A stretch of DNA of 16,123 nt, taken from IMG/VR virus record IMGVR_UViG_2558860288_000003, positions 1 through 16,123 of that record; one strand, given 5' to 3'. Of this stretch, positions 1 to 16,123 are shown one piece after another. Position numbers and translations under genes: made by a program. This DNA comes from a virus (Duplodnaviria; Heunggongvirae; Uroviricota; Caudoviricetes). Position 1 is the first letter of the stretch. Each line of letters begins with the position of its first letter. The notes under the pieces were generated by a model, which saw nothing but the letters and a program-made list of their open reading frames with translations, made no database searches and was not told where the DNA came from.

Positions 1-216
1 AACACCCTCTGCCCAGGCGGCGTATTTCGGCAGCAGCTCCACCTTGATTTCCGCTTTTTTGACCGTGGACTGAACGCCCTTGAGACGGCGGCGGTCTTCC
101 GCCAGTTGCAGCAGCATCAGGTCATAGCCCGATGCGTGGCGAACACTGCCGCCCTCGCGGGCGGCCTGTTCAGCCTGAACGCGCAGGCGATGCTGCCGTG
201 CGGGACTCAGGCTCAT
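1..216 (-). CDS. Terminase small (endonuclease) subunit, P2 gpM family; N-terminal 72 codons only, gene runs off the window
   Basis: Minus-strand ATG at 216-214. The translation MSLSPARQHRLRVQAEQAAREGGSVRHASGYDLMLLQLAEDRRRLKGVQSTVKKAEIKVELLPKYAAWAEGV matches the N-terminal pattern of P2 gpM as I remember it (SPAQRH..RV, RHA, ML..LA.D.R.LK, ELLP, W..GV). A TAA of the preceding in-frame reading lies 3 nt upstream, as at the P2 N/M junction. Confidence 0.7.
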   Translation of the reverse strand, partial: MSLSPARQHRLRVQAEQAAREGGSVRHASGYDLMLLQLAEDRRRLKGVQSTVKKAEIKVELLPKYAAWAEGV

Positions 217-219
217 GGA

Positions 220-420
220 TTACGCTCCGGTTTCGGCTGCGGCGGCGCTGAAATCACCAATCTGGATGTTTTCCACCAGTGCGGCGCAGCGGTAGTCCTC
301 AACCACATAGGCTTCATTAACGGATTCAAAGTTTTCAATCCGGTCACGTTTCGGGTTGTCGATAACTGAACGGCGGCGGGTGTCTTCCTGCCAGTAGATG
401 GACAGGTCAACGAAGCCGAC
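220..420 (-). pseudogene. Major capsid protein (P2 gpN family) C-terminal remnant of about 66 codons with no start codon
   Basis: The minus-strand frame that ends in TAA at 222-220 reads VGFVDLSIYWQEDTRRRSVIDNPKRDRIENFESVNEAYVVEDYRCAALVENIQIGDFSAAAAETGA. This resembles the remembered gpN C-terminus (LSIYY..RRVI.ENPK.DR.EN.ES.N..YVVEDY...LVE.I..GDFS). It is bounded upstream by an in-frame stop at 421-423, contains no Met, and its 5' end overlaps the terminase reading frame. Confidence 0.5.
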
Positions 421-528: not shown

Positions 529-1866
529 ATGTTCAACTACCAGCGCCACTGGTGGGAAGCCGGAAAAACCAACCGCATCCGCAACCTGCTGAAGTCACGC
601 CAGATCGGCGCGACCTTCTATTTTGCCCGTGAAGCCCTGATTGACGCTCTGCTTACCGGACGTAACCAGATTTTTCTTTCCGCCAGCAAGGCACAGGCCC
701 ACGTCTTCAAACAGTACATCATCGACTTTGCCAAAGAAGTGGAGGTGGAGCTGAAAGGCGATCCGATGGTGCTTCCCAACGGGGCCACACTGTATTTCCT
801 CGGCACCAATGCCCGCACGGCCCAGAGTTACCACGGCAACCTGTATCTGGATGAATATTTCTGGATACCGAAATTCCAGGAGCTGCGCAAAGTGGCTTCT
901 GGTATGGCTATTCACAAGAAATGGCGACAAACCTATTTTTCCACGCCATCCAGCCTGACACACAGTGCTTATCCGTTCTGGTCCGGTGCACTGTTCAACC
1001 GTGGGCGCAACAAAGCCGATAAGGTGGACATCGACCTGTCCCACAGCAATCTGGCCCCCGGCCTGCTGTGCGCAGACGGGCAATACCGCCAGATAGTCAC
1101 CGTGGAAGATGCGGTGCGCGGCGGCTGCAACCTGTTCGACCTTGACCAGTTGCGCATGGAGTACAGCCCGGACGAATACCAGAACCTGCTGATGTGCGAG
1201 TTTGTGGACGATCTCGCGTCCGTGTTTCCGCTCAGCGAGCTGCAGGCGTGCATGGTGGACAGTTGGGAAGTCTGGACCGACTTTCATGCTCTGGCCCTGC
1301 GCCCGTTTGGCTGGCGCGAAGTGTGGATCGGTTATGACCCGGCAAAAGGTACGCAGAACGGCGACAGTGCCGGATGCGTGGTGGTGGCACCGCCAGCCGT
1401 GCCAGGCGGTAAGTTCCGCATTCTTGAGCGTCACCAGTGGCGCGGGATGGACTTCCGCGCCCAGGCTGACGCCATCAAAAAACTGACCGAACAGTACAAC
1501 GTGACATACATCGGCATCGACTCAACTGGCGTCGGCCACGGGGTTTACGAGAACGTGAAAGCATTCTTTCCTGCCGTCCGGGAGTTTGTCTACAACCCCA
1601 ACGTTAAAAACGCCCTGGTACTCAAGGCCTACGACATTATCAGCCACCGCCGTCTGGAGTTTGACGCCGGACACACCGACATAGCGCAGTCATTCATGGC
1701 AATCCGTCGCGCCACCACCGCCAGTGGCAACCGCCCGACCTATGAAGCCAGCCGCAGCGAAGAAGCCAGCCACGCCGATCTGGCCTGGGCAACGATGCAC
1801 GCACTGTTTAACGAACCGCTGCAGGGCGAATCCGCCAATACCAGCAATATTGTGGAGATTTTTTGA
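529..1866 (+). CDS. Terminase large (ATPase) subunit, P2 gpP family; apparently N-terminally truncated
   Basis: The 445-aa ORF contains WWEAGKTNRIRNLLKSRQIGATFYFAREA and an acidic-residue-rich nuclease-like C-terminal half typical of P2-type large terminases. The frame stays open upstream to a TGA at 367-369 with protein-like sequence (LNPNVANRNKGPRRQPEKNVFTDEQIEKLEEIFHSS) but no start codon. The stop TGA overlaps the portal ATG. Confidence 0.8.
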   Translation: MFNYQRHWWEAGKTNRIRNLLKSRQIGATFYFAREALIDALLTGRNQIFLSASKAQAHVFKQYIIDFAKEVEVELKGDPMVLPNGATLYFLGTNARTAQSYHGNLYLDEYFWIPKFQELRKVASGMAIHKKWRQTYFSTPSSLTHSAYPFWSGALFNRGRNKADKVDIDLSHSNLAPGLLCADGQYRQIVTVEDAVRGGCNLFDLDQLRMEYSPDEYQNLLMCEFVDDLASVFPLSELQACMVDSWEVWTDFHALALRPFGWREVWIGYDPAKGTQNGDSAGCVVVAPPAVPGGKFRILERHQWRGMDFRAQADAIKKLTEQYNVTYIGIDSTGVGHGVYENVKAFFPAVREFVYNPNVKNALVLKAYDIISHRRLEFDAGHTDIAQSFMAIRRATTASGNRPTYEASRSEEASHADLAWATMHALFNEPLQGESANTSNIVEIF

Positions 1867-2894
1867 TGGGAAAGAGTAAGAAGAACCGCGCTGCGGCGAC
1901 GAAACAGATCCAGCTTAAAAGTCAAACTACAGCCGAAGCATTCAGCTTCGGCGATCCCGTTCCTGTTCTGGACCGCCGTGAACTGCTGGACTATGTGGAA
2001 TGCGTACAGATGGATCGCTGGTATGAGCCGCCTGTGAGTTTCGACGGACTGGCGCGAACCTTCCGCGCCGCCGTGCATCACAGTTCACCAATTGCGGTGA
2101 AATGCAATATTCTGACCAGTACCTACATCCCTCACCCGCTGCTCAGCCAGCAGGCTTTTTCACGTTTTGTGCAGGACTATCTGGTATTTGGTAACGCCTA
2201 TCTGGAGAAACGCACGAACCGGTTCGGTGAAATTATCGCTCTTGAGCCTGCCCTGGCAAAATATACCCGACGCGGGTTAGACCTGGATACCTACTGGTTT
2301 GTGCAATACGGTATGACCACGCAACCGTATCAGTTCACGAAAGGCAGCATTTTTCATCTGATGGAACCAGATATCAACCAGGAGATCTACGGCCTGCCCG
2401 GTTATCTTTCTGCCATTCCGTCAGCCCTGCTCAACGAGTCCGCCACGCTGTTCCGCCGTAAGTATTACATCAACGGCAGCCATGCAGGCTTCATCATGTA
2501 CATGACCGACGCCGCGCAGAACCAGGAAGATGTAAACAATCTCCGTAACGCGATGAAAAGCGCCAAAGGTCCAGGCAACTTCCGCAACCTGTTTATGTAC
2601 TCGCCTAACGGCAAAAAAGACGGGCTTCAGATTATTCCTCTGTCAGAAGTCGCGGCAAAGGATGAATTTTTGAATATCAAGAACGTGAGCCGGGATGACA
2701 TGATGGCAGCACACCGAGTGCCGCCGCAAATGATGGGGATAATGCCGAATAATGTTGGGGGATTTGGGGATGTGGAGAAGGCTAGTAAGGTTTTTATGCG
2801 TAATGAATTGATACCGCTACAAAACAGAATAGAAGAACTCAATAAATGGCTCAAAGATGACATAATAAAATTCATGCCATACAGTTTCATATAA
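1866..2894 (+). CDS. Portal protein, P2 gpQ family
   Basis: The ORF is about 342 aa from the ATG at 1866 (the ORF track began at an in-frame TTG at 1863). Size and position immediately downstream of the terminase ATPase gene match the P2 P-Q operon, with a TGATG overlap and GGAG upstream. Confidence 0.8.
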   Translation: MGKSKKNRAAATKQIQLKSQTTAEAFSFGDPVPVLDRRELLDYVECVQMDRWYEPPVSFDGLARTFRAAVHHSSPIAVKCNILTSTYIPHPLLSQQAFSRFVQDYLVFGNAYLEKRTNRFGEIIALEPALAKYTRRGLDLDTYWFVQYGMTTQPYQFTKGSIFHLMEPDINQEIYGLPGYLSAIPSALLNESATLFRRKYYINGSHAGFIMYMTDAAQNQEDVNNLRNAMKSAKGPGNFRNLFMYSPNGKKDGLQIIPLSEVAAKDEFLNIKNVSRDDMMAAHRVPPQMMGIMPNNVGGFGDVEKASKVFMRNELIPLQNRIEELNKWLKDDIIKFMPYSFI

Positions 2895-2899
2895 AACTA

Positions 2900-2920
2900 A
2901 GGGCCGAATACCTCGGCCCT
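2900..2920. terminator. Stem-loop between the convergent portal gene and cargo gene X
   Basis: AGGGCCGA-ATACC-TCGGCCCT forms a perfect 8-bp stem with a 5-nt loop. On the minus strand it is followed by TTAGTTTTAT, so it is a plausible intrinsic terminator for gene X and possibly also for Q. Confidence 0.45.
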
Positions 2921-2925
2921 CTACA

Positions 2926-4131
2926 TTAAGATTTATGGCTAAAGAGTATACCTGTAACAGAACGTTGATAGGCATCAAGCTTCTCTTGCCTCTGCTTAAA
3001 TTTAGATTTGATATCACTAATACTCGGAATACCTATTACTCCAAGGCCTGCACTTAACGCCGTTAAAGTAGTATTGCCAGTCAGCGCTCCAGCAATTGCT
3101 ATAGCACCATTTGCGATACATGGTAGGACATCTAGTCCGTAAATTCTCAATTTCTCTTTTTGGGCTTTTGCAAGAATCCTTTGATGTTCAATAAAAGCCC
3201 GGTCTACATTATCAATTACTTTTTGCGTTGTCCTCGAAAAGCTCTCTGCCGAAGAATTGATTAAAGAGTCAACACCATTTGATAAGATGGATCTTACATC
3301 CTCCATCAATTTGTTACGTCTCAACTCAATTATTTTATTGACCGGTACATTTCCTAACCATGAAAAACCATCTTGCATACCAGCAGATAACGCATGAACC
3401 ATATGCAAATTTTTTAGTTCAATATCATTGACATCAAAATTAAGAGATTCGTACTCAATAAGCCAAGTATAATAGAGCCAAGATGTGTCTGCATTTATAT
3501 ATGGAGTACTACCAAGTTCTTGTGCATTACATTTTGCTGAATAGGCTTGCGGCATTCTTCCAATGCAGGAAAGGAAAACCTCCATTCCAGCATGATCACC
3601 AACAAGATTACGTGATATTCTTTTTTTATCAGATAGTAGTTTTTCTAATTGAGTTTTTGGATTTAGCCCCCATGCTGTATCAAAAATAAGTCTATCTGCT
3701 CTCTTAATATTTTTAAGAACAGCATCAATATCATTCATCGAATAACTAAAATCTCGAAATTCATCGTAGCTTTCGAACCGTCGATCATAGAGATATTGCG
3801 CATGAGTCAGAGCATAAGGCTCACAAAAACTCATCAAATTTTTTTTGCTCTCAGTTTCAAAATCTCTTCTATCCGGCAAAATTAATACTATTGCTGGCTC
3901 TATATCTTCAAGCGCTACTTCTTTATATGTCATACATGTTAGGACATGCTTCAGAAGTATCCTTGTAAACTCAGCCTTATCTGACTTTTCATAGAGACGA
4001 CCGACTCTTAATATAGGACATGGAAGTGAAATAGTATCAACATACAACCCTGCAATAGAGACAGCATTCTCATCAAATGCAGGAAATAAGTCACCAGAAA
4101 AATTAGCTTTAAACTGAGAACCATCCTGCAA
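2926..4131 (-). CDS. Uncharacterised protein, C-terminal ORF of split gene X (candidate defence / abortive-infection effector)
   Basis: The 401-codon ORF in the track starts at a TTG. The same frame stays open and protein-like for 40 more codons upstream, to a stop at 4252-4254 (SIKFFSQQEEYVKQIEDIFPELYNQVIEFWQVTSDIGVIH), with no ATG. The C-terminal region has a hydrophobic Gly/Ala-rich stretch (LPCIANGAIAIAGALTGNTTLTALSAGLGVIGIPSI). The gene is strongly AT-rich by eye. Confidence 0.6.
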   Translation of the reverse strand: MQDGSQFKANFSGDLFPAFDENAVSIAGLYVDTISLPCPILRVGRLYEKSDKAEFTRILLKHVLTCMTYKEVALEDIEPAIVLILPDRRDFETESKKNLMSFCEPYALTHAQYLYDRRFESYDEFRDFSYSMNDIDAVLKNIKRADRLIFDTAWGLNPKTQLEKLLSDKKRISRNLVGDHAGMEVFLSCIGRMPQAYSAKCNAQELGSTPYINADTSWLYYTWLIEYESLNFDVNDIELKNLHMVHALSAGMQDGFSWLGNVPVNKIIELRRNKLMEDVRSILSNGVDSLINSSAESFSRTTQKVIDNVDRAFIEHQRILAKAQKEKLRIYGLDVLPCIANGAIAIAGALTGNTTLTALSAGLGVIGIPSISDIKSKFKQRQEKLDAYQRSVTGILFSHKS

Positions 4132-4205
4132 ATGTATTACACCAATATCGGATGTTACCTGCCAAAACTCTATTACCTGATTATATAACTCAGGAAAAAT
4201 ATCTT

Positions 4206-4598
4206 CTATTTGCTTAACATATTCTTCTTGTTGAGAAAAAAACTTGATGCTTTATGTGGCGTTGCATTAGTTTTTTTCATCAGATAAAACAACTCGCCAA
4301 AATTACTAAAAAGAATATTAAAGTAAGAACTTTGCAAGTCCTGAATAGAGTATTTGTTTTTTATATCTTCTCTTTCTAAAAAGTGATTAACCGCTGCTCC
4401 CATAGCCCTTATTCTGCCATCAACAGTAGAAGGGTCAACTTTACCATCCTGTCGCAGCCTTATTCTTTTAAAACTTTCAATAAAACCTTCTACAAGATGA
4501 TGAGCTATTTTTAGTTTTCCCGCTTCCAGTTGTTGCTTAATGAGAAAAACACGCTCAGTTAAATCATCTACATATTCCTCATCTTGATATTTTTCCAT
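4206..4598 (-). CDS. Uncharacterised protein, N-terminal ORF of split gene X
   Basis: ATG at 4598 with a GGAG 5 nt upstream (ttaatGGAGcgtttATG). The 130-codon ORF ends shortly after a T7 homopolymer (plus-strand A7 at 4236-4242). One extra T would fuse it in frame to ORF 2926..4131. Confidence 0.55.
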   Translation of the reverse strand: MEKYQDEEYVDDLTERVFLIKQQLEAGKLKIAHHLVEGFIESFKRIRLRQDGKVDPSTVDGRIRAMGAAVNHFLEREDIKNKYSIQDLQSSYFNILFSNFGELFYLMKKTNATPHKASSFFLNKKNMLSK

Positions 4599-4706
4599 AA
4601 ACGCTCCATTAAAATATTTAATAATGCATATAAGAATAGTTAATAATATTTACAGTAACTATATCACATTAGATCCAGATTGTTACACTGTTGCGCGCGC
4701 TCGTAT
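4599..4706 (-). promoter_or_regulatory. AT-rich upstream region of gene X (putative promoter)
   Basis: About 100 bp of very AT-rich non-coding sequence immediately upstream of the gene X start, with several TATA-like hexamers. No -35/-10 pair could be assigned with confidence. Confidence 0.3.
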
Positions 4707-4718
4707 CCCCGCCACGCC
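4707..4718 (-). other. cos-like motif: GGCGTGGCGGGG on the minus strand, matching the first 12 nt of the 186 cohesive end as remembered
   Basis: The plus strand reads CCCCGCCACGCC. The remembered 19-nt cohesive ends are GGCGTGGCGGGGAAAGCAT (186) and GGCGAGGCGGGGAAAGCAC (P2). Here the first 12 nt match 186 exactly and 3 of the remaining 7 also match (about 15/19). Orientation and position (between the A/tum side and Q) fit a cos site. Confidence 0.4.
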
Positions 4719-4767
4719 TGCTCGCTTTGTGTAGTGGTTTTCATGCAGGTGCATGACATAAGCAAAA

Positions 4768-4787
4768 GCCCGCCAGAACTGGCGGGC
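4768..4787 (-). terminator. Hairpin GCCCGCC-AGAACT-GGCGGGC followed on the minus strand by TTTTGCTT
   Basis: Perfect 7-9 bp GC-rich inverted repeat. On the minus strand a T-run follows it, so it is a possible second terminator or structured element in the cos-proximal non-coding region. Confidence 0.35.
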
Positions 4788-5003
4788 CTGCATCAAAACG
4801 ATCCTCAAACGATCATGCGTTCTCATGCAGCATAGTCATGCACGGATGAGAGAAATGAATGCGCGTATCCAAATGCCCGTTTGAAAAACGCAGATGAACT
4901 AAAAAAGCTTAAGGTCTACTATGAGCGAGAAACGGACATTTAATTTTCGAGTAGTGGAAATCGAAGCCAGTACCTGCCGGAGCCATAGTATCGAAACCAC
5001 GAA

Positions 5004-5031
5004 CAATAAAAAGCCTGGAAATATCCAGGCT
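5004..5031 (-). terminator. Intrinsic terminator downstream of the qor-like gene
   Basis: Stem GCCTGGA / TCCAGGC (7-8 bp) with a 4-nt loop. On the minus strand it is followed by TTTTTATTG, and it lies about 37 nt past the qor stop. Confidence 0.55.
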
Positions 5032-5066
5032 GCGCAAGACTCATTTATAGAATGCTGCGGTAAGGA

Positions 5067-6059
5067 TTACTCAACGGTCACAACTATTTTGCCGACCTGT
5101 CCATTGGACTCCATATAGCGCTGGGCGTCTGCAATCTCTTCGAACGGGAACGTCTTATCGATGACCGGCTTCAGTTTGCCGACTCGCAAGCCTTCTGTGA
5201 TAAAGGATTTTGCGCGCGCCATTTTTTCAGAGTCCGTCGTGATTTCAAACAGCTCATATCCACGCAGGGTGAGATGCTTACCGAGAATATCAAATACAGG
5301 CACAAGCATGTCACGGCTATCGAGCGCGCCGTACTGGAAAAACATACCCTGTGGTGCCATCACCTGCGTCAGTTTTGCCACGTCCGGCCCACCGACGGGA
5401 TCAAAAACAATATGGGCACCTGCGCCATCTGTTGCACGACTGATTTCAGCAACCATATCCTGCTCCGCAGTAGCAATGACGGCGGCTGCGCCAGCTTTAA
5501 GGAGCATTTCGCTTTTTTCAGAGGTCCGTGTGAGTGCAATTGGGTTTGCACCCAGCATGTTAGCAATCTGTATGGCAGCCAGACCCACGCTGCTTGATGC
5601 TGCGCGGATCACGACATTCTGACCAGCCTGAAGGTTGCCATACTCAACCAGCGCACCATAAGCGGTGACATACATCATCCAGCTTGCGGCGGCTTCCTCG
5701 AATGAAAGGTTTTCAGGATGCTTTACGACAGCATGAACCGGTGCGTTGACCACTTCACCATACATGCCGTATTCATTAAACATAAATGAAGGGATCACGC
5801 TTACCCGATCTCCAGTGGTAAACTCATCTACATTCTCACCTACTGCCTGTACAACGCCGGCCGCTTCATAACCAAGACGTGCCGGAAATTCCGGCTCAAT
5901 AACATATTGGCCGTTGCGGTACATGATTTCTGCACGGTTGATACCTATCGCATGTACGCGGATCTGCACTTCACCCGCTGTCGGTGCAGGCACCTGCACA
6001 TCAACAACTTCCAGCACTTCCGGGCCACCGGTGCGGTTAAAGGTAATAACTTTAGACAT
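5067..6059 (-). CDS. NAD(P)H:quinone oxidoreductase-like enzyme (medium-chain dehydrogenase/reductase superfamily)
   Basis: The translation MSKVITFNRTGGPEVLEVVDVQVPAPTAGEVQIRVHAIGINRAEI... has the typical quinone-oxidoreductase N-terminus and a Rossmann-type glycine-rich segment (VVIRAASSSVGLAAIQIA). ATG at 6059 with a GAGAG SD; the track start at 6065 is a TTG. Confidence 0.85.
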   Translation of the reverse strand: MSKVITFNRTGGPEVLEVVDVQVPAPTAGEVQIRVHAIGINRAEIMYRNGQYVIEPEFPARLGYEAAGVVQAVGENVDEFTTGDRVSVIPSFMFNEYGMYGEVVNAPVHAVVKHPENLSFEEAAASWMMYVTAYGALVEYGNLQAGQNVVIRAASSSVGLAAIQIANMLGANPIALTRTSEKSEMLLKAGAAAVIATAEQDMVAEISRATDGAGAHIVFDPVGGPDVAKLTQVMAPQGMFFQYGALDSRDMLVPVFDILGKHLTLRGYELFEITTDSEKMARAKSFITEGLRVGKLKPVIDKTFPFEEIADAQRYMESNGQVGKIVVTVE

Positions 6060-6208
6060 ATTCAACTCTCTTCAGTTAAAGGCACACCTTCAGAATAATG
6101 CCGAAGGGATGCCCGAATCATTTGTGAACAATCTACGTTGTTACGAACACACCAGAAATAGCTGAGAGGGAACTTCAGTATTAATTATCCATTAACAATC
6201 CGCCTGCT

Positions 6209-7099
6209 TCAGCGGATCTGCGTGGCCAGAATATCACTGAACCAGTCGATAAAGACGCGCACTTTTGGAGAAAGGTAGCGCCTGTCGGGATACATCACTG
6301 ACACGGGCTTTGACACCGATGGGTATTGCGGCAGAATCTCTTCAAGAGCGCCGGAAGCAATATGGGGAGCAACGGCATCATAGGTAGCCTGGATAATGCC
6401 CAGACCAGCCAGAGCACAAGAAAGCAGAATATCGGAATTATCAACCAGCAGGCTGCCCGCAGGACGTAGCGAAACAATGCTCCCGTCTTCGATAAACTTC
6501 CATTCCATGACGTCACGACTGTGGTCGCTAAAAAAGTTAATTGCCCGATGTTTATCCAGATCCGCAAGTGTTTCTGGCCGCTCATGCTGCTGCAGGTAAG
6601 ACGGGGCTGCACAGGTAACCATCCGGATGTCACCAAGACGTCTGGATATAAAACTAGAATCTTGAAGCGCCCCCAGGCGGACAAGGCAATCTACGCCTTC
6701 CGTAATCAAATCAGTTTTTTTATCGGAAGAAACCAGCACAACTTCAATACCTGGATACAGTGCCTGAAAATGCCTGAGATTAGGGATCAATATGGAATGC
6801 GCCAGCGCCAGGGGCACATCAAGTCTCAGGCGTCCTCGCGGTGGAAGTGTCGGTGAAAAACTGGCCATCATGTCATTAACTTCGGCCAGAACATGCCTAG
6901 CATGATGATAGAACTCATCCCCTTCAGCAGTAACGCTCAGCTTTCGGGTTGTGCGATAAATGAGTTTTACACCCAGATCATGCTCTATCTGCTGTATCGC
7001 TTTGCTCACAGTGGGGCGATGAATCTGAAGTACATCAGCAGCTTTCGTGAAGCTACCCTGCTCAACAACCTGTATGAAAATATTTAGGTATTCAATCAT
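6209..7099 (-). CDS. LysR-family transcriptional regulator
   Basis: From the ATG at 7099 the protein starts MIEYLNIFIQVVEQGSFTKAADVLQIHRPTVSKAIQQIEHDLGVKLIYRTTR..., the canonical LysR-family N-terminal helix-turn-helix. The rest has a substrate-binding-domain-like size of about 296 aa. Confidence 0.85.
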   Translation of the reverse strand: MIEYLNIFIQVVEQGSFTKAADVLQIHRPTVSKAIQQIEHDLGVKLIYRTTRKLSVTAEGDEFYHHARHVLAEVNDMMASFSPTLPPRGRLRLDVPLALAHSILIPNLRHFQALYPGIEVVLVSSDKKTDLITEGVDCLVRLGALQDSSFISRRLGDIRMVTCAAPSYLQQHERPETLADLDKHRAINFFSDHSRDVMEWKFIEDGSIVSLRPAGSLLVDNSDILLSCALAGLGIIQATYDAVAPHIASGALEEILPQYPSVSKPVSVMYPDRRYLSPKVRVFIDWFSDILATQIR

Positions 7100-7333
7100 G
7101 TTGGCATGCACGTGCTCACCTGTTTTGTAGGCTGTTCAAAACCGACATTGTAAAGTAAACCATCCCAACGACATTATTTCTTTTCGTTCAGATAAGGGCT
7201 TTCTGACTGTCACAATGTCCACTTCTGGCACAAAGCGGACGACCATTTTCAAATGGCCGTCGCATCTAACACCTCGTTTCACTCATTGTTCAACCTTACC
7301 CCCATCAGAAGGAATTCTTTCGGGGGCAACGTT

Positions 7334-7922: not shown

Positions 7923-10316
7923 TCAGTAATACTGCCGCCACTTGTCATCCTCACGCAGCCGCCCGTTCTGGTAAAAGATGCGCAGCCCTCCCCCTGACGG
8001 AAGGCTGCCGCCGCGTAAAAGTAAATTCACTTCATACTCACTGCCATCGAACCCTCTGGACCGCAACTCATACTCCAGCTGCAGGCGCTGCTGCTCAGAA
8101 ATATTCTGCTTGTATGCCTTTTTCCGTTTCGGTTTTACCAGCCTGAGCCGGGCAACCAGCTCCCGCCGTTCCTTTTTGCCCATGCCGTGCAGATAGTCCT
8201 GCAGCGCCTTTTCATCCATGGACGTGATACCCGTTACTTCCCCCCCTGTTTGGTTCAAATTTTCAACAGGGGGACAGTTATTGCCACGAGTCCAAGGGGC
8301 GCAAGCGCCCTGGTCGGCTGCCGCCTCCTGAACGTCAACGGCCTTACGAACCATTTTCCACTTCACGGCATGAGTGCAGATCTTGCCCTCTGCAATAGGT
8401 GACCAGATGCCATAAATACGAATGCCGTGATCGCCATAGGCGGTCGGCTCTTCGTTGATTTCATAAGCAGTTCTGATGAGGTGATATTTGCGGGGAACCA
8501 GTACGCCACCCTGCTTCATGATGTAGGTGGCAAAACAACCAGCATCAGCAGCAGCCAGAATGGCATCAAGGCGCGGGTTATCCAGTACCGGCGCACCTGC
8601 TTTTTTGTCCCCCTGTTGCCTTGCCGCCTGACCAGCCAGCAATCGCAGTTCACGGTAAGCCTGACGCCCCGGAATGCCAAAGAAGCGGAATTGCTGAACA
8701 CGATGCAGAGACGCCCAGGCATTAACGTATTCAGCATTATCACGCAGGGATTTCCCCGTTTCCTTGCTGATCTCGCCAGCCAGACCACGCCCGTCAATGT
8801 TCTTACTGATGTATTTCACGATGTAGCTAGTCGGCGTTCCTTTGCGCGGGTTTATCAGCTCAGACTTAAAGCGTGGCCCCGTGTTATTACCCAGCTCCTC
8901 GCGGTCTTCACGGATAGCAAACTTACGCAACAATGCAGTAATGGCGCGGCGGTCTTTTTTGCGCATGAAACACAACAGGTGCCAGTGAACTGTGCCGTCA
9001 TGATGCGGCTCAGCCACCCGCACGCCATACCAGCGCAACCCGGCTTTGTGCATCGCCTTACGAAATGCAGCAAACATGCCGACCAGATAATCACTGCTTT
9101 GTCTTACCGTCGCATTTGTCCAGGTCGGGTTGGGCCTGCCGTTATTTAGCGTGGAATGGAAACGTGACGGACAGGTGATGGTGTAGAAAACGGCGCAGTC
9201 ACCGCGCATTTCCGCGATAAGCTCCAGACCTTTAACACAGGCCATCATCTCATTGCGGCGATGCGCAGGGTTGCTGCTGCTGGCGTTTACCACATCCTCC
9301 ATGTCCAGCGTGTCGCCGTCTTCGTTCACCAGTTCATGAGAACGGAAAAACTCCAGCGACTTACGGCGCTGCTCACGTTTATGCATCACGGCTTCATAGC
9401 TGACATAGGGAGATGCTTTTTTGCTGACCAGGCAAACAGCACGCAACTGCTCTTCCCGCCATTCGCAACGCATCTTCCATAATTTCCGGTACCACCAATC
9501 GGCGCACAACATACGCGCCAGCGAACCCGGAATGAGTTCATAGGGCACGGGTTTACGGCGGTTTCTTTTCCGGCGGAGTTGCTCAAACGCAGGCGGTATG
9601 ACATCCAGTCGCAGGGTTTCTGCTGCCACCTTTTCCCATGTCTTGCGGATTTCTTCTGGCTTAACATCATCGGTGGCGTACAAATCACCACAAGCGGCAT
9701 CAAGACACATACTCATATGCGCAGCGACAAGAGTAGACAGGCGTTTCACCTGATCCTGACTCATTTCAGGCAAGATCAGCAGGCCGTCCAGCCCTTCATG
9801 GCTTGCCATAAAGCGAAAAGAAGTGGATAGCTGACTGTCGCGTACATGCTCCAGTCGTTCCAGACATGGCTTAATCGTCTCACGCAAATAGCGGGAATAA
9901 GCCTTTGGCCTGCCCAGGCTGCTGAAGTATTCAATACGTTGCATCAGCGGCTTGCTGATATGGGAAGGCTGGGCGTTAACGTCCGCCAGTATGACCATGT
10001 CCGGATTAAAACGCTGCTGCTCATGCGCCAGCTTTGCCCGGCTAATAAGCTTATCCTGCTCCATTTCGCGCTGGACAGGATCACGGGATTCATTAAAGAA
10101 ATAACGCTCCCAGACCTGATCACTCAGTGCCTCGCGGCGCAGTTGTTCCTGCTCGTTATCGGCAGCGTACAGAGTGATCAGGTTTGAAAGCGCAGAAACC
10201 GGCGCAACTTCCGCCGGGTCCAGATAAGGGTTAATAGCCTTTTTCGGGCTGTTCCATGAGAATGCTGCGGCGGCCTCGTTAAAGCCGCTGCAGTTGTTCA
10301 TATCAGCATGGCTCAT
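7923..10316 (-). CDS. Replication initiation protein, P2 gpA family (rolling-circle HUH endonuclease)
   Basis: The 797-aa protein contains a His-hydrophobic-His motif ([11 protein letters not shown]) and sits at the P2 gene A position downstream of the early genes. Its start overlaps the dam stop (ATGA). Confidence 0.85.
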
Positions 10317-11170
10317 GCACGCACTCCGTACACGGCAGAACTATCCACGCCACGCGAAGAATCAAATCCCACCCAGCAGCGTGCCCCAGAAACAGCGATG
10401 ATTTCTGTTGCAGATTTACTCTCACCAGCTGCTACGCCGATGCTGCGTTTTGCCTTGATGTAGTGGTGAGTAAAATTGCGATACAGCGAACGGATCAGGG
10501 ATGTGTCACTGTTAGAAACAATGACCGGATGTCCTTCTGATGACCGATGTTCAAGAACGGATGCCAGGTGATACTGGTCATCTTCAGTGAAACCATCAGT
10601 GTGATAGCCGGAAAACGTACCGTCATACGGCGGATCGCAATACACCACATCCCCCGCCTTCAACATCGCCAGCGTTTCATCAAAGCTGGCGCAGATAAAC
10701 GTTGCTCGCTGGGCCTTTTCTGCAAATGCGCGAATTTCTTTTTCAGGGAAATACGGATTTTTATAATTACCGTAGGGAATGTTGAAATGCCCGCTCTTGT
10801 TATAGCTACATAAACCACGGTAACCGTGACGATTGAGATACAGGAAATATACCGCTTTCATGAAATCAGTAATTTCAGTTGAGTAATTAAACTCCTGCCT
10901 TATGTTGTAATAAGCCACCTCCCTGTTTGCGATCTCAAATAAAACTCTGGCGCGAGATATAAACGATTCACAATCAGCAGCAACCTTTTTATAGAGGTTG
11001 ATTAAATCAGGATTAATATCCGCAACAAGATAGCTGGGGTAATCCGTCTCCATCATCACAGCACAGGAACCCGCGAAAGGTTCAACCAGTCGCGGGCCAG
11101 CAGGAAGATGTTTTTTCAGTTCGGACATAATGGTAGTTTTATTACCCGCCCATTTCAGGATGGTGCTCAT
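10313..11170 (-). CDS. DNA adenine methyltransferase (Dam-like, GATC-type N6-adenine MTase)
   Basis: From the ATG at 11170 the protein starts [62 protein letters not shown]... and contains a DPPY catalytic motif ([12 protein letters not shown]). SD AGGAGG; the track start at 11242 lies inside the upstream gene. Confidence 0.85.
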
Positions 11171-11469
11171 ACAGCACCTCCTGCAATAACATATCCTAAA
11201 GCTTCTAATGGGGTTAATGGGCGAATTGATAGCATCACCCATTGTTCTGAAACTGCCATGACGTCATTAACCGGAAGCACATGAGAGATAACAGCGGCCC
11301 ATTCCCTACCCGTAAATACGCCATGCTTCCATTCGCAAAGAGAAAGAACATCACCAACTTTATAGCCACGATCGTCTTTACGAAGTTCAGCCGTCTTTTG
11401 ACCTGCAACCACAGCGTTGAAATACTTAGGTGCAATTTTTAATTGATGGATACGCACTGCCCTTGTCAT
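11167..11469 (-). CDS. Small early protein, ASCH / DUF3850-like
   Basis: From the ATG at 11469 the 100-aa protein starts [41 protein letters not shown].... SD GGAGG. It has ATGA overlaps with both neighbours. Confidence 0.55.
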
Positions 11470-12506: not shown

Positions 12507-13016
12507 TCACAGCAAACCGAATGAAGCACCAAGGCCAGTCATGGTATCAACTGCACTCGCCATCGCCGGGTTAGCCTGTAAACGGGCCTGCAATGAAACA
12601 GCAGCCAGCGCCATCAGTCGTGTTACAGAGTTAATGCTGCTGATAGCATCACGACGACCTGCACTGGTTTTTACATTGCCAGATACCGCACCTGCAGCAA
12701 CACGCCCGATCTCTGCGGTTGCACTCATGACGTAATGCGGCAGTTTCTCTTTTGCTACCTCATTAATCGGTACACATGGCAGGCAGTGAATCTGTGCCAG
12801 AAAACCATCTATCAGCGTTGAATCTTCAGTCAGATCGGTAAGCAGCCAGATTTCTGGCGCATTGAGCTGATGCGGTTGATCTGGGTTGAGTTTGTTTCGC
12901 AGAGTCTGGACATTCATTCCTGCACGTTCTGCCAGCTTCGCCATATTGTGACGAAGTGCAAAAGCTCTACAGGCTTCATCAAAATGCGGGTGTTTGGAAA
13001 TCTTATAATCAAACAT
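12507..13016 (-). CDS. cII: CII-like lysogeny establishment regulator (186 CII family)
   Basis: The 169-aa protein MFDYKISKHPHFDEACRAFALRHNMAKLAERAGMNVQTLRNKLNPDQPHQLNAPEIWLLTDLTEDSTLIDGFLAQIHCLPCVPINE... has the same length and the same start as 186 CII as remembered. SD AAGGGGG. Confidence 0.8.
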   Translation of the reverse strand: MFDYKISKHPHFDEACRAFALRHNMAKLAERAGMNVQTLRNKLNPDQPHQLNAPEIWLLTDLTEDSTLIDGFLAQIHCLPCVPINEVAKEKLPHYVMSATAEIGRVAAGAVSGNVKTSAGRRDAISSINSVTRLMALAAVSLQARLQANPAMASAVDTMTGLGASFGLL

Positions 13017-13291: not shown

Positions 13292-13407
13292 AGTGCAGTA
13301 TCTCTTAGTTTGGTTTCGTTTTATCTTGTTTTATGTGGTTTGGTTTTGCTTTTCAAACCATAAATGGATATTGGGATCACTTTTTATATACGTCAAGGGG
13401 TTTGATT
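13292..13407. promoter_or_regulatory. Divergent lytic/lysogenic promoter-operator switch region
   Basis: 116-bp AT-rich intergenic region between the divergent apl-like and cI-like genes. It has repeated TTTGGTTT motifs (around 13310 and 13339) and an inverted repeat GGTTT-N8-AAACC around 13340-13357. Confidence 0.5.
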
Positions 13408-14040
13408 ATGAGTTTGATCAAGGCGGGAAATGATAGTGGTGGGCGCGATGCAATTAACAGGCTTATTAAGGCTTACAACTTCAGCTCACGACAGCAGCTC
13501 TGCGAACATCTGGAGGTATCCAAAAGCACTATGGCTAACAGATACTTAAGGGATAGCTTTCCTGCCGAATGGGTAATTCAATGTGCCCTTGAAACAGGAG
13601 CTTCCCTTCTATGGCTGGCTACTGGTCAAGGAGATATGTATGCGTGTGAGAACGAAGAAACAAATCTCAAAAATGAACCTCCCGTCACTGTAAGACCACT
13701 TTCTAAGATCGTTGCTCCTAGCATCAAACGTGTTGAACTGAAGAACGGCGAACTGCAGGCAAGTGATGAAATTCTTCTTGATAGCAGCCTGCTCGATGGT
13801 GACTCATCCAACGCTTTATTTGTTAAAACAGCTAATAATAGCTTTGTAGTGGATACGTCCGTTAAACAAGTCAGTAATGGCTTCTGGTTAGTCGATATGG
13901 ACGGAGTTAAAAGCATCGTCAAAATTGCGCGCATACCCGGAAACAAAATAGTAGTTAACCAAGATGACACTTCATTTGAATGTTCTGTAGATGATGTGGA
14001 AGTCGTAGGACGTGCAGTCAAAGTAATCAAGAACCTCTAA
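13408..14040 (+). CDS. cI: CI-like immunity repressor (186 CI type)
   Basis: ATG at 13408 with SD AAGGGG (the track start at 13333 has no SD and a non-protein-like leader). The 210-aa protein has an N-terminal DNA-binding-like region, sits divergent from apl/cII and lies directly upstream of int. Confidence 0.75.
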   Translation: MSLIKAGNDSGGRDAINRLIKAYNFSSRQQLCEHLEVSKSTMANRYLRDSFPAEWVIQCALETGASLLWLATGQGDMYACENEETNLKNEPPVTVRPLSKIVAPSIKRVELKNGELQASDEILLDSSLLDGDSSNALFVKTANNSFVVDTSVKQVSNGFWLVDMDGVKSIVKIARIPGNKIVVNQDDTSFECSVDDVEVVGRAVKVIKNL

Positions 14041-14043
14041 CTT

Positions 14044-15060
14044 ATGACCATCAGAAAACAGCCGAACGGAAAATGGTTGTGTGAGTGCTATCCCAATGGA
14101 CGCAATGGTAAGCGCGTGCGTAAGCAATTTGCTACCAAAGGCGAAGCCATTGCATTTGAAAGCTTCACCATGGACGAAGTAAACAAAAAGCCATGGCTTG
14201 GTGAGAAGGAAGATCGGCGGCGATTATCAGAAGTGATTGAGCAGTGGTATTCCCTATATGGTCAAACACTCGCAGACCCCAAACGCCTGATGGCGAAACT
14301 TAGAATTATCTGTAATGGTCTAGGCGATCCCATCGCCTCTGAGCTGACAGCAGGTGATTTCACAAAATATCGGGAAGCCAGATTAAAGGGGGAGGTCCAA
14401 AATGAAGACGGCTCGTTCATGTCACCCGTTAAACCTCGCACAGTTAATCTTGAGCAGCGTAACCTGTCATCGGTGTTCGGTACATTGAAAAAACTAGGGC
14501 ACTGGTCCGCACCAAACCCGCTGGCAGGGCTTCCAACCTTCAAAATTGCTGAAGGTGAATTGGCTTTTCTTTCCACGGACGAAATCAAACGCCTGCTTAA
14601 TGCCTGCGCCGAATCTCAAAACACCAGCCTACTAATGATTGCAAAAATATGCCTGGCTACTGGTGCGCGATGGAGTGAAGCAGAAAACTTGCAGGGCCAT
14701 CAGTTATCAAAATACCGGATCACCTATACCAAGACAAAAGGTAAGAAAAATCGTACCGTGCCGATATCTCAAAATCTGTATGATGAACTCCCCAAGAACA
14801 GAGGGAAACTATTCACACCGTGCAGAAAAGCCTTTGAACGAGCAGTAAAGCGAGCAGGCATCGAGCTACCAGAGGGCCAATGCACCCACGTGCTGCGTCA
14901 TACATTCGCCAGTCATTTTATGATGAATGGCGGGAATATTCTTGTCCTTAAAGAAATATTGGGCCATGCCGATATAAAAATGACGATGGTTTACGCACAC
15001 TTTTCTCCAGACCATCTAGAAGATGCTGTTACAAAAAATCCTTTACATAATTTGGTTTAA
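14044..15060 (+). CDS. int: Tyrosine integrase, P2/186 family
   Basis: The 338-aa protein starts MTIRKQPNGKWLCECYPNGRNGKRVRKQFATKGEAIAFESF..., typical of P2-family integrases. The C-terminal catalytic region has HVLRHTFASHF and a Tyr in MVYAHF. Confidence 0.9.
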   Translation: MTIRKQPNGKWLCECYPNGRNGKRVRKQFATKGEAIAFESFTMDEVNKKPWLGEKEDRRRLSEVIEQWYSLYGQTLADPKRLMAKLRIICNGLGDPIASELTAGDFTKYREARLKGEVQNEDGSFMSPVKPRTVNLEQRNLSSVFGTLKKLGHWSAPNPLAGLPTFKIAEGELAFLSTDEIKRLLNACAESQNTSLLMIAKICLATGARWSEAENLQGHQLSKYRITYTKTKGKKNRTVPISQNLYDELPKNRGKLFTPCRKAFERAVKRAGIELPEGQCTHVLRHTFASHFMMNGGNILVLKEILGHADIKMTMVYAHFSPDHLEDAVTKNPLHNLV

Positions 15061-15065
15061 TAGAA

Positions 15066-16123
15066 TGAAAAAAAAGCTCACATTAATCATTACCTACGCA
15101 ATCATTACTATCTTAATTGCCTTAGCATTGATATACACTAATCGTCCAAGAGTTTTTATCTTCTTTAGTGTAGCTTATATACTTGGATTGATACTTATGT
15201 TCTATTGCTTCAATTGGCTTAAACTAAATGAGAAAAATCTATTAAAACAACCATTATTCATAGCATCTATTATCGTACCGTTAAAAATGTTTGTTTTGTA
15301 TGGCCTCTGGGCTTGGAAAGGCCACGATTTAAATTTCACATCAGACGGTTTTAATCACTTTCTTGACATCTCTAAATTGCCATTATTTATTTTAGCTTCT
15401 TCGGTACCTCTTGCAGCAATCGTCAACAATATACATAGAACCACACAAACAGAGAACCAAATAGAAAAAACACAAAAGCAAATCAATCTTGTTATTGAAA
15501 AAAACACCACTGATTCATATTACTCACATCTGAAAAGCTTCGCTGACATATTCCAAACACTACCAACATTTAAATTATCAAGATTAAATAAAGAAACTAG
15601 TGATATAGACAGTATTGAACTATCTGTAGTTCATCCGTACACTCTTTATAAAAATATTTTCAAATCATCTTCCATTGATAATGGCTATAGCACCGTTGTC
15701 GAAGAAGATTTTATTCGAAAAACAACAAATCATTATAACAACATAAACAAATCGCTTAAGTCCAACAACAAAAATCATGACGACCAATTAGTTAGCCTAC
15801 AACTCATAGAATCAAACATAATTCAACTTTGCAGACTACTTGGAATTGATTATAAATACCAAGAACATCTTTTCTCAATAATTCTTGAACATCCAAAACC
15901 AGATACGGAAGCCATAAGCATCTCATTCAATGATGAAAAACAACTAAAGCAAATGCTTTGGGGACTAAGAAATATTCTCATTGAGTTATATGTTTTAATC
16001 GACAAGGACCCCTCTATCTTCCAAACAGGTAAAAGCAATGGTGATTACATACCTGAGTACGCACTATATGACGAAAAACTCTTTACAAGCATTTTACCTA
16101 TATCAAATGACCAGCGCATTTAA
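15066..16123 (+). CDS. AT-rich uncharacterised membrane protein (four predicted N-terminal TM helices plus a soluble domain of about 220 aa)
   Basis: Complete ORF of 352 aa from the ATG at 15066 (alternative ATG at 15023 overlaps the int 3' end); it ends in TAA at the window edge. Four hydrophobic segments (LTLIITYAIITILIALALIY, VFIFFSVAYILGLILMFYCF, LFIASIIVPLKMFVLYGLWAW, LPLFILASSVPLAAIV) precede a hydrophilic Asn/Lys-rich domain. Codon usage is very AT-rich. Confidence 0.6.

Follow-up and report, generated by a model that had tools for sequence, protein, structure and literature searches.

The window, by which we mean the whole 16,123-nucleotide (nt) stretch of IMG/VR virus record IMGVR_UViG_2558860288_000003 that was analyzed, covers part of a P2/186-like prophage, in reverse orientation; its genes were identified using Pfam. 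On its minus strand lies what is, by its sequence, a stand-alone accessory gene of P2-like phages, positioned between cos and the portal gene and broken by a one-base frameshift. The core of the protein that the repaired gene would encode resembles DitB, which together with DitA makes up the Aditi anti-phage system, and we refer to the gene as the DitB-family gene. The gene, its parts and the signals around it are as follows.

2926–4598, minus strand: DitB-family gene, frameshifted, orthologue of WP_024235280.1 (frame 4598..4236 gives residues 1–121; 4235..2926 gives residues 122–557)
4206–4598, minus strand: truncated product of the open reading frame as sequenced, 130 amino acids (aa), comprising residues 1–121 and 9 out-of-frame residues
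4236–4242, minus strand: T7 homopolymer, site of the 1-nt deletion (alignment with Escherichia coli PE15 and 210221272)
3183–4349, minus strand: putative DitB-homologous core, approximately residues 84–472 (PADLOC, hhalign)
3012–3137, minus strand: predicted Gly/Ala/Ser/Thr-rich hydrophobic helical hairpin, about residues 488–529 (model and hydrophobicity)
4604–4607, minus strand: GGAG Shine–Dalgarno sequence, 5 nt before the start codon (ATG, 4598) (sequence)
4658–4686, minus strand: sigma-70-like promoter candidate, GTAACA, 17-nt spacer, TATAGT, with TG before the –10 (9/12 matches)
4700–4718, minus strand: cos-like site GGCGTGGCGGGGATACGAG (similarity to phage 186 cos)
2899–2921, minus strand: GC-rich hairpin terminator with a 10-bp stem, between the gene stop (2926) and the portal end (2894) (sequence)

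An earlier note, made from the sequence alone, had described two adjacent minus-strand open reading frames (ORFs) here and joined them into one gene of about 557 codons. Both ORFs are present (4598..4206, 130 aa, and 4131..2926, 401 aa), and they are one gene split by a 1-nt deletion, with T7 in the window versus T8 in E. coli PE15 and 210221272. Adding one T back yields a 557-aa protein whose sole difference from WP_024235280.1 is L332V. PE15 and 210221272 each carry an uninterrupted 1,674-nt coding sequence for WP_024235280.1 (557 aa, annotated 'hypothetical'), and at the DNA level one substitution and the 1-nt deletion separate the window gene from either copy. A megablast search of 5,426 complete E. 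coli genomes found the region at 98.5–99.3% identity in 19 records from 17 genomes, in all of which the gene adjoins a 'phage portal protein' and is labeled hypothetical protein. As sequenced, the gene is predicted to be non-functional; its truncated 130-aa product still spans the Avs1c-like N-terminal helical domain (residues ~19–85) described below. E. coli 13P477T has the gene three times, once in the chromosome and twice on small extrachromosomal records resembling excised or replicating P2-like genomes (NZ_CP019273, CP019275 and CP019279; CP019275 is circular and 37.4 kb long, CP019279 is 22.6 kb).

The similarity to DitB is carried by two kinds of profile comparison. In PADLOC, residues 195–452 match positions 95–344 of the 361-position DitB profile (E = 7.3e-10), and the same profile is matched by 12 of 40 diverse family members, which were aligned for this analysis and share 21–43% identity with the E. 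coli protein. In hhalign, the family profile scored 62% probability (E = 7.7e-5) against one DitB sequence, 85% (E = 6.2e-6) against two and 96.2% (E = 2.6e-9, 328 columns) against a profile of 21 DitB sequences gathered by a new homologue search, with family positions 81–470 aligned to DitB 9–358. Because of the span of this alignment, DitB equates to the core of the protein, which is extended by ~80 aa at the N-terminus and ~85 aa at the C-terminus. On this profile evidence, the core (~390 aa) of the 557-aa protein is a remote homologue of DitB, at ~14% identity, which revises the earlier impression that the protein had no motif of a known defense family. Aditi is an experimentally verified defense system of unknown mechanism (Millman et al. 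2022), whose verified proteins from Saccharibacillus kuerlensis measure 483 aa (DitA) and 372 aa (DitB) (Millman et al. 2022, Supplementary Table); the literature searched offers nothing on how it works.

The N-terminal addition has a likeness of its own. The PADLOC model for Avs1c (PDLC02160, 86 positions) matches 12 of the 40 members over residues ~19–85, with a best E value of 5.3e-7, a likeness that rests on the PADLOC model rather than on comparison with a real Avs1c sequence. Avs1c may be a free-standing version or a remnant of the family's N-terminal domain. The window holds neither a STAND gene nor a metallo-β-lactamase (MBL) gene, and so lacks the composition of AVAST type 1. One further model, LeoBC, gave a weak match (E = 0.001–0.005) confined to residues 430–541; we rejected a LeoBC/dynamin (Eleos) assignment because only one of the 40 members gives the match, a GTPase domain is absent, and the similarity is of coiled-coil and hydrophobic composition. 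There was no similarity to Old or to any PADLOC model besides these three. Searches of Pfam, NCBIfam and PHROGs with the intact protein and the 40 diverse members returned nothing significant, and sequence-profile searches of the PDB with two alignments found no match. Homology to a virion or assembly protein was absent from PHROG, Pfam and structural families; the structural, morphogenetic or housekeeping relationship that could have overturned a defense reading was thus looked for and did not appear (Pfam, NCBIfam, PHROGs).

At the C-terminus, the Gly/Ala-rich segment that the earlier note had singled out, GAIAIAGALTGNTTLTALSAGLGVIG, is present and forms part of a predicted hairpin, VLPCIANGAIAIAGALTG-NTT-LTALSAGLGVIGIPSI (about residues 491–527), the most hydrophobic part of the protein (Kyte–Doolittle 19-mer, 1.62), bordered on both sides by Lys/Arg-rich stretches. 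The hairpin is the most hydrophobic segment in 38 of the 40 members, and its best Kyte–Doolittle 19-mer reaches 1.2 in 38 members and 1.6 in 22. An AlphaFold2 model built from a 22-sequence alignment (predicted local distance difference test 82, predicted template modeling score 0.73) is mostly helical, with four short strands (164–167, 189–192, 238–240 and 365–367), and places here a 54-residue helix (454–507) followed by short helices at 510–521 and 527–545. The proposal of a membrane-perturbing tail fares unevenly: the tail is conserved, but it is only marginally hydrophobic, and membrane insertion is no better than plausible.

The family is large and widely scattered. A word-indexed search returned 212 homologues, of which the best 120 are nearly all ~550–560 aa, carry no Pfam domain and are called 'hypothetical' where named; their sources are Enterobacterales, Aeromonas, Aquitalea and Electronema. 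With an exhaustive profile search the family grows to 752 clusters (at 50% identity) at E ≤ 1e-3, of which 258 reach E ≤ 1e-30; most matches cover the whole protein, some are missing the first ~80 residues, and some have an N-terminal extension of ~200 aa. Scanning one genome per species gave 58 loci, distributed patchily across alpha-, beta-, gamma- and delta-proteobacteria, Bacteroidota, Cyanobacteria, Firmicutes, Acidobacteria, Planctomycetes, Nitrospirae and Dadabacteria, with plasmid copies in Cupriavidus, Photobacterium, Sinorhizobium and Sutcliffiella. In the 40-sequence alignment, Y92, W146, G169, P195 and R436 are invariant, and the motifs YxDTIxLP[DC]P, GRMxQA, TPxI[DN]AxTSW and WLG are nearly so.

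Several members depart from this architecture. Proteins of ~740 aa (P0222, P0238, P0200 and similar) carry a conserved ~200-aa N-terminal extension with the motifs NLWD..W and EGDI..GYSV, which has no Pfam or PADLOC match and may be an alternative sensor or effector module; the extension of P0217 bears a helix-turn-helix (HTH) domain and no other Pfam match. A 452-aa Firmicutes member on Sutcliffiella horikoshii plasmid pBH-BAT-167 (locus L076, 5968–8224) has no Avs1c-like N-terminus and keeps the hairpin; a gene for a SEC-C-domain protein begins 2 nt downstream, followed by XerS, and the member and the SEC-C-domain gene may form a two-gene variant.

The position of the gene within the prophage is that of known accessory cargo. 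It lies between the replication endonuclease gene gpA and the portal gene gpQ, beside the cos-like site at 4718–4700, 15 of whose 19 positions match the phage 186 cos sequence; on packaged DNA it is the first gene after cos and is convergent with the portal gene. The GC fraction is 0.325–0.39 over 2800–4800 versus 0.50–0.60 in the terminase, portal and gpA flanks, and the gene itself has a GC content of 35.3% and a third-codon-position GC content (GC3) of 24.6%, against 49.5% and 58.4% for the portal gene, which bears out the view of it as AT-rich, horizontally acquired cargo. Cargo at this junction is variable: the flanks match 1190 E. coli genomes but the DitB-family gene is found in only 17, in other P2-like prophages of E. 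coli this junction is filled by different genes, among them one for an Sll1717 ATPase and one for a GTP pyrophosphokinase, and in PE15 the gene is the sole variable cargo in the hotspot. This is the gpA–gpQ hotspot of P2-like phages defined by Rousset et al. 2022 (PMC9122126), in which P2 carries old and tin and several cargoes were proven to be anti-phage, so the proposed cos-proximal variable region of a P2-family phage is where the gene indeed sits. WP_024235280 appears in Table S5A of that study, in loci described as 'hypothetical + DinI + hypothetical'; the eight additional P2 systems that were cloned there do not include it. The protein is therefore already catalogued, as 'hypothetical', but uncharacterized, and cannot be called novel in the sense of unseen; apart from that table entry, its accession is unmentioned in the literature searched. 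A 2026 survey of P2 and P4 elements reports complete or putative defense genes in 81% of P2 elements and makes no mention of Aditi or DitB. The remaining assigned genes of the window are listed here with the two hotspot boundaries.

529–1866, plus strand: terminase large subunit (Pfam)
1863–2894, plus strand: portal gene (gpQ-like), one hotspot boundary (Pfam)
5067–6065, minus strand: Zn-dependent dehydrogenase (Pfam)
6209–7111, minus strand: LysR regulator (Pfam)
7923–10316, minus strand: replication endonuclease (gpA-like), the other hotspot boundary (Pfam)
10313–11242, minus strand: Dam-type methylase (Pfam)
12507–13016, minus strand: CII-like regulator (Pfam)
13333–14040, plus strand: CI repressor (Pfam)
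14044–15060, plus strand: integrase (Pfam)

The prophage is defective. Window positions 2–407 belong to the small-terminase/capsid gene region and are joined at 408 to the mid-terminase ATPase gene; relative to E. coli 210221272, ~2.2 kb is gone, which removes the scaffold gene, the N-terminus of the terminase and some of the capsid gene; this deletion accounts for the 445-aa terminase ORF. Two other stretches of cargo can be seen in the window. On the gpA side of the hotspot, a 2.4-kb cassette at 4845–7265 (GC ~50%) pairs a gene of the Zn-dependent alcohol dehydrogenase family with the LysR regulator, a metabolic-looking cargo inside a 'defense' hotspot; only 3 of the 5,426 E. coli genomes carry it, and in strain G3/10 it sits in a tRNA-Phe island beside a restriction endonuclease and an integrase. 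A second very AT-rich ORF (GC 31.5%), at 15023–16123 on the plus strand, overlaps the 3′ end of the integrase gene at its start and runs past the end of the window; it has several hydrophobic helices at its start and no Pfam or PADLOC match, and its int–att position is a minor defense hotspot according to the 2026 survey.

Of the expression signals proposed earlier, those closest to the gene hold up. The gene has its own Shine–Dalgarno sequence, GGAG at 4607–4604, and purine-rich Shine–Dalgarno sequences also precede the gene in homologous loci; the convergent terminator is a hairpin at 2921–2899, directly after the stop codon. The AT-rich promoter region is not supported: the 9/12 candidate is weak and belongs to a class of sigma-70-like sites that is not above chance here (5 found versus 8.2 expected from shuffled sequence). 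The cos-like motif of the window also lies 80–170 nt upstream of the homologous gene in loci L001, L002, L007, L008, L009 and L012, and when the regions upstream of the start codon were aligned across homologous loci, cos alone was conserved and no conserved promoter could be defined. The AT-rich leader is not conserved between these loci and differs with the cargo.

A survey of homologues elsewhere found the cos-proximal slot reused. Homologues at 46–59% identity occupy the same position, convergent on the portal gene, in Serratia, Pseudocitrobacter and IMG/VR P2-like elements. The Serratia homologue stands beside an ATPase matching the HEC-02A, PD-T4-4_A and AriA models, an Aeromonas homologue lies in an integrase island beside mutS, and a metagenomic one is flanked by a PAAR toxin cassette and by an HTH gene paired with a retron-type RT_VI gene. 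The single-gene character proposed by the earlier note is upheld by all-against-all clustering of up to five neighbors on each side at 67 loci, in which no partner gene was conserved and the recurring neighbors were integrases (6 loci) and the portal gene (4 loci). For 54 loci not already annotated, Pfam and PADLOC were run on 104 immediate neighbors, giving counts that overlap and have no matched control: MADS components (mad8, 6; mad3, 4), integrases (4), SMC_N-type ATPases (4), MmeI-type IIG restriction–modification enzymes (3), DEAD/ResIII helicases (3), and two each of SNF2/ZorD/DrmD-like helicases, nSTAND3, DUF4238, reverse transcriptases and AAA_21. These counts favor a defense association in a supportive sense and are not a formal enrichment; with them, the expectation that homologues elsewhere would associate with mobile elements and defense genes is borne out.

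One island deserves separate mention. In locus L007 (3413–9674; GCA_033363915.1), a homologue at 48% identity directly follows a cos-like site, and the same island holds an integrase, two PDC-S31 (DUF2971) genes and Ogr/Delta, a content suggestive of a P4-like satellite. This satellite-like context stands out beside the report of the 2026 survey that P2 and P4 almost never share defense genes.

Starting from the gene structure, conservation, hotspot position, homologies and absence of a partner gene documented above, we consider it somewhat probable that the intact protein is an anti-phage defense protein. Hotspot placement, the DitB homology, the Avs1c-like N-terminus, defense-type neighbors, the hairpin and foreign composition all support this reading. 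We envision a single-protein defense expressed from the lysogen, in which the DitB-like core would recognize an infection cue and the hairpin would take the place of the missing DitA, tethering to or inserting into the inner membrane as the output, through abortive damage to the membrane or through exclusion there. This division of labor is modeled on the modular architecture, not on data, and the specific membrane-output step is, in our judgment, rather doubtful. A broader proposal, which we advance tentatively and at less than even odds, is that stand-alone DitB-family proteins with a membrane hairpin make up a new, phylum-spanning single-gene anti-phage system, in which the hairpin replaces DitA and the Avs1c-like domain is a shared regulatory or sensing module.

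Several observations weigh against a defense function or against parts of this scheme. The gene cannot act in this host as sequenced, because it is frameshifted. In the literature searched there is no experiment on this protein or on any family member, and our searches found neither a catalytic motif nor a fold match for the 557-aa protein. Because DitB itself has no known mechanism, homology to it supplies context rather than function, and DitA, which Aditi requires, appears to be missing from the family. Many neighbors of family members are housekeeping genes, such as MetH, GcvP and ThiC. A Hessa-type energy sum for the hairpin (a crude calculation) is positive in 39 of the 40 members, with a median of +4.1 kcal/mol; because of this, the hairpin is marginal as a constitutive transmembrane helix, and it could be a buried or oligomerization element. 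Its sequence appears to be better suited to an anchor of the interfacial or re-entrant type, to a glycine-zipper-like element that inserts only under certain conditions, or to an interface between the subunits of an oligomer.

These points bear on alternatives of quite different weight. We regard it as very improbable that the locus is a full canonical Aditi system or one half of it. Homology does run across the whole length of DitB, but PADLOC flags a lone DitB-like match and calls no complete system, and DitA has no counterpart in the protein itself (its sequence shows no similarity to the family profile), in the PADLOC results for the 40 members, or by tblastn at E ≤ 1 in the window and around 76 family loci (1.26 Mb of flanking DNA). 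The extra N- and C-terminal modules and the ~14% identity to DitB point the same way, and with no adjacent DitA and no conserved neighbor we rejected this assignment. The frameshift raises a separate matter, as it may be a genuine recent inactivating mutation or a sequencing error. It is a serious possibility, falling short of an even chance, that the missing T is a homopolymer sequencing or assembly error and that the organism carries an intact (T8), active gene rather than a pseudogene. The deletion is the only coding indel between window positions 408 and 4780 relative to E. coli 210221272, it falls in an 8-base homopolymer, and the gene otherwise has one substitution. All 19 E. coli reference records are T8 or longer (a 101-nt probe over the T-run corresponds to 102 nt in every record except one with 103 nt), and the T7 allele is absent from all of them. 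The two extrachromosomal 13P477T records match the protein only in two or three tblastn pieces, and one of them has an extra base in the 101-nt segment at the T-run; because these copies are fragmented, the gene seems prone to homopolymer assembly errors. Against an error stand the terminase and portal frames in the preceding 4 kb, which contain no indels and so give no general homopolymer-error signature, and the 2.2-kb deletion, a mark of a decaying prophage in which a genuine inactivating mutation is plausible.

Two further alternatives accept an intact protein and assign it another role. It could be a membrane-anchored superinfection-exclusion or lysogenic-conversion factor that acts constitutively at the inner membrane, for example by blocking DNA entry, and not as an abortive system set off by a sensor; a hairpin with basic flanks would suit a cytoplasm-facing monotopic anchor, and such a role would suit a prophage moron that comes first after cos and brings a ribosome-binding site and a terminator of its own. 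We nevertheless find it unlikely, given that homologues occur in many non-phage islands and plasmids of Gram-negative and Gram-positive phyla, a wider spread than expected of an exclusion protein specific to a receptor or to injection, that the DitB homology and the Avs1c match point to cytoplasmic defense systems, and that the hydrophobicity of the hairpin is marginal. We assign a similarly small chance to a non-defense accessory role, such as counter-defense, an inter-bacterial toxin or a host fitness factor, in a hotspot that is merely tolerant of insertions. Among the cargo that Rousset et al. 2022 (PMC9122126) note in that hotspot are systems for plasmid partition and a cytolethal distending toxin. 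In the window the hotspot contains the dehydrogenase and LysR genes as well, one homologue sits beside the PAAR toxin cassette, and several neighbors of family members are housekeeping genes. Known anti-defense proteins, however, are typically much smaller, and the only significant similarities of this protein are to components of two defense systems. The gene is also the sole variable cargo of the PE15 hotspot, in an element type that carries defense genes in the large majority of cases reported by the 2026 survey.

For the window itself, the candidate anti-phage module of the earlier note stands in part: the gene exists and is conserved, yet the sequenced copy is broken and belongs to a decaying prophage. 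Another candidate single-gene system in the P2 hotspot will not surprise specialists; the connection it opens may interest them more. Aditi is one of few validated defense systems whose two proteins have neither a recognizable domain nor a known mechanism, and the family ties DitB to a far larger group of 752 clusters in many phyla, whose members have no DitA, carry a different presumptive output module and have an N-terminal domain in common with an AVAST type 1 accessory protein. As far as the literature searched shows, this link between DitB, Avs1c and a family of ~550-aa proteins that spans many phyla is new. If the broader proposal made above is correct, DitB would be the sensor core of Aditi and the family would offer a first route into the mechanisms of both DitB and Avs1c. 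The one-gene version in E. coli P2-like prophages would provide a tractable model for what the DitB fold senses.

Compared with Aditi, the family protein has the motifs FW, LFPxY, DDP/LPDP and IhhILP and the block AQA...IPYIR / GRMxQA...TPLIDAPTSW in common with DitB, and like DitB it has no Pfam domain and no known fold. Aditi is made of two genes (DitA, 483 aa, and DitB, ~365 aa), whereas the family protein has no DitA nearby and carries two parts that DitB (361–372 aa) lacks, ~80 aa of Avs1c-like sequence at the N-terminus and ~85 aa of coiled coil and hydrophobic hairpin at the C-terminus; the DitB proteins examined are from Firmicutes, whereas the family spans many phyla. Compared with AVAST type 1, where Avs1c is a separate small protein, the third of the system, encoded with the MBL-fold nuclease Avs1a and the protease-STAND protein Avs1b, the Avs1c-like segment is here part of a larger protein, includes a conserved RLxxDGxVDPxTVDGRIR motif, and is missing from some members, for example the Sutcliffiella protein and ~480-aa forms.

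Compared with old and tin of P2 and the validated hotspot cargoes, the gene occupies the same P2-like slot beside cos and is likewise single-gene, AT-rich and swappable among phages that are otherwise alike, but its side of cos is that of the portal gene, not that of gpA, and it has no reported anti-phage phenotype. DUF4238, the domain of one validated single-gene P2-hotspot system, also occurs near distant family members. Finally, the predicted layout of a large, presumably cytoplasmic domain followed by a short hydrophobic Gly/Ala-rich hairpin with basic flanks is like that of abortive-infection effectors with transmembrane or glycine-zipper tails, a general class from which it differs in the arms of the hairpin, which measure 16–18 residues and are of marginal hydrophobicity.

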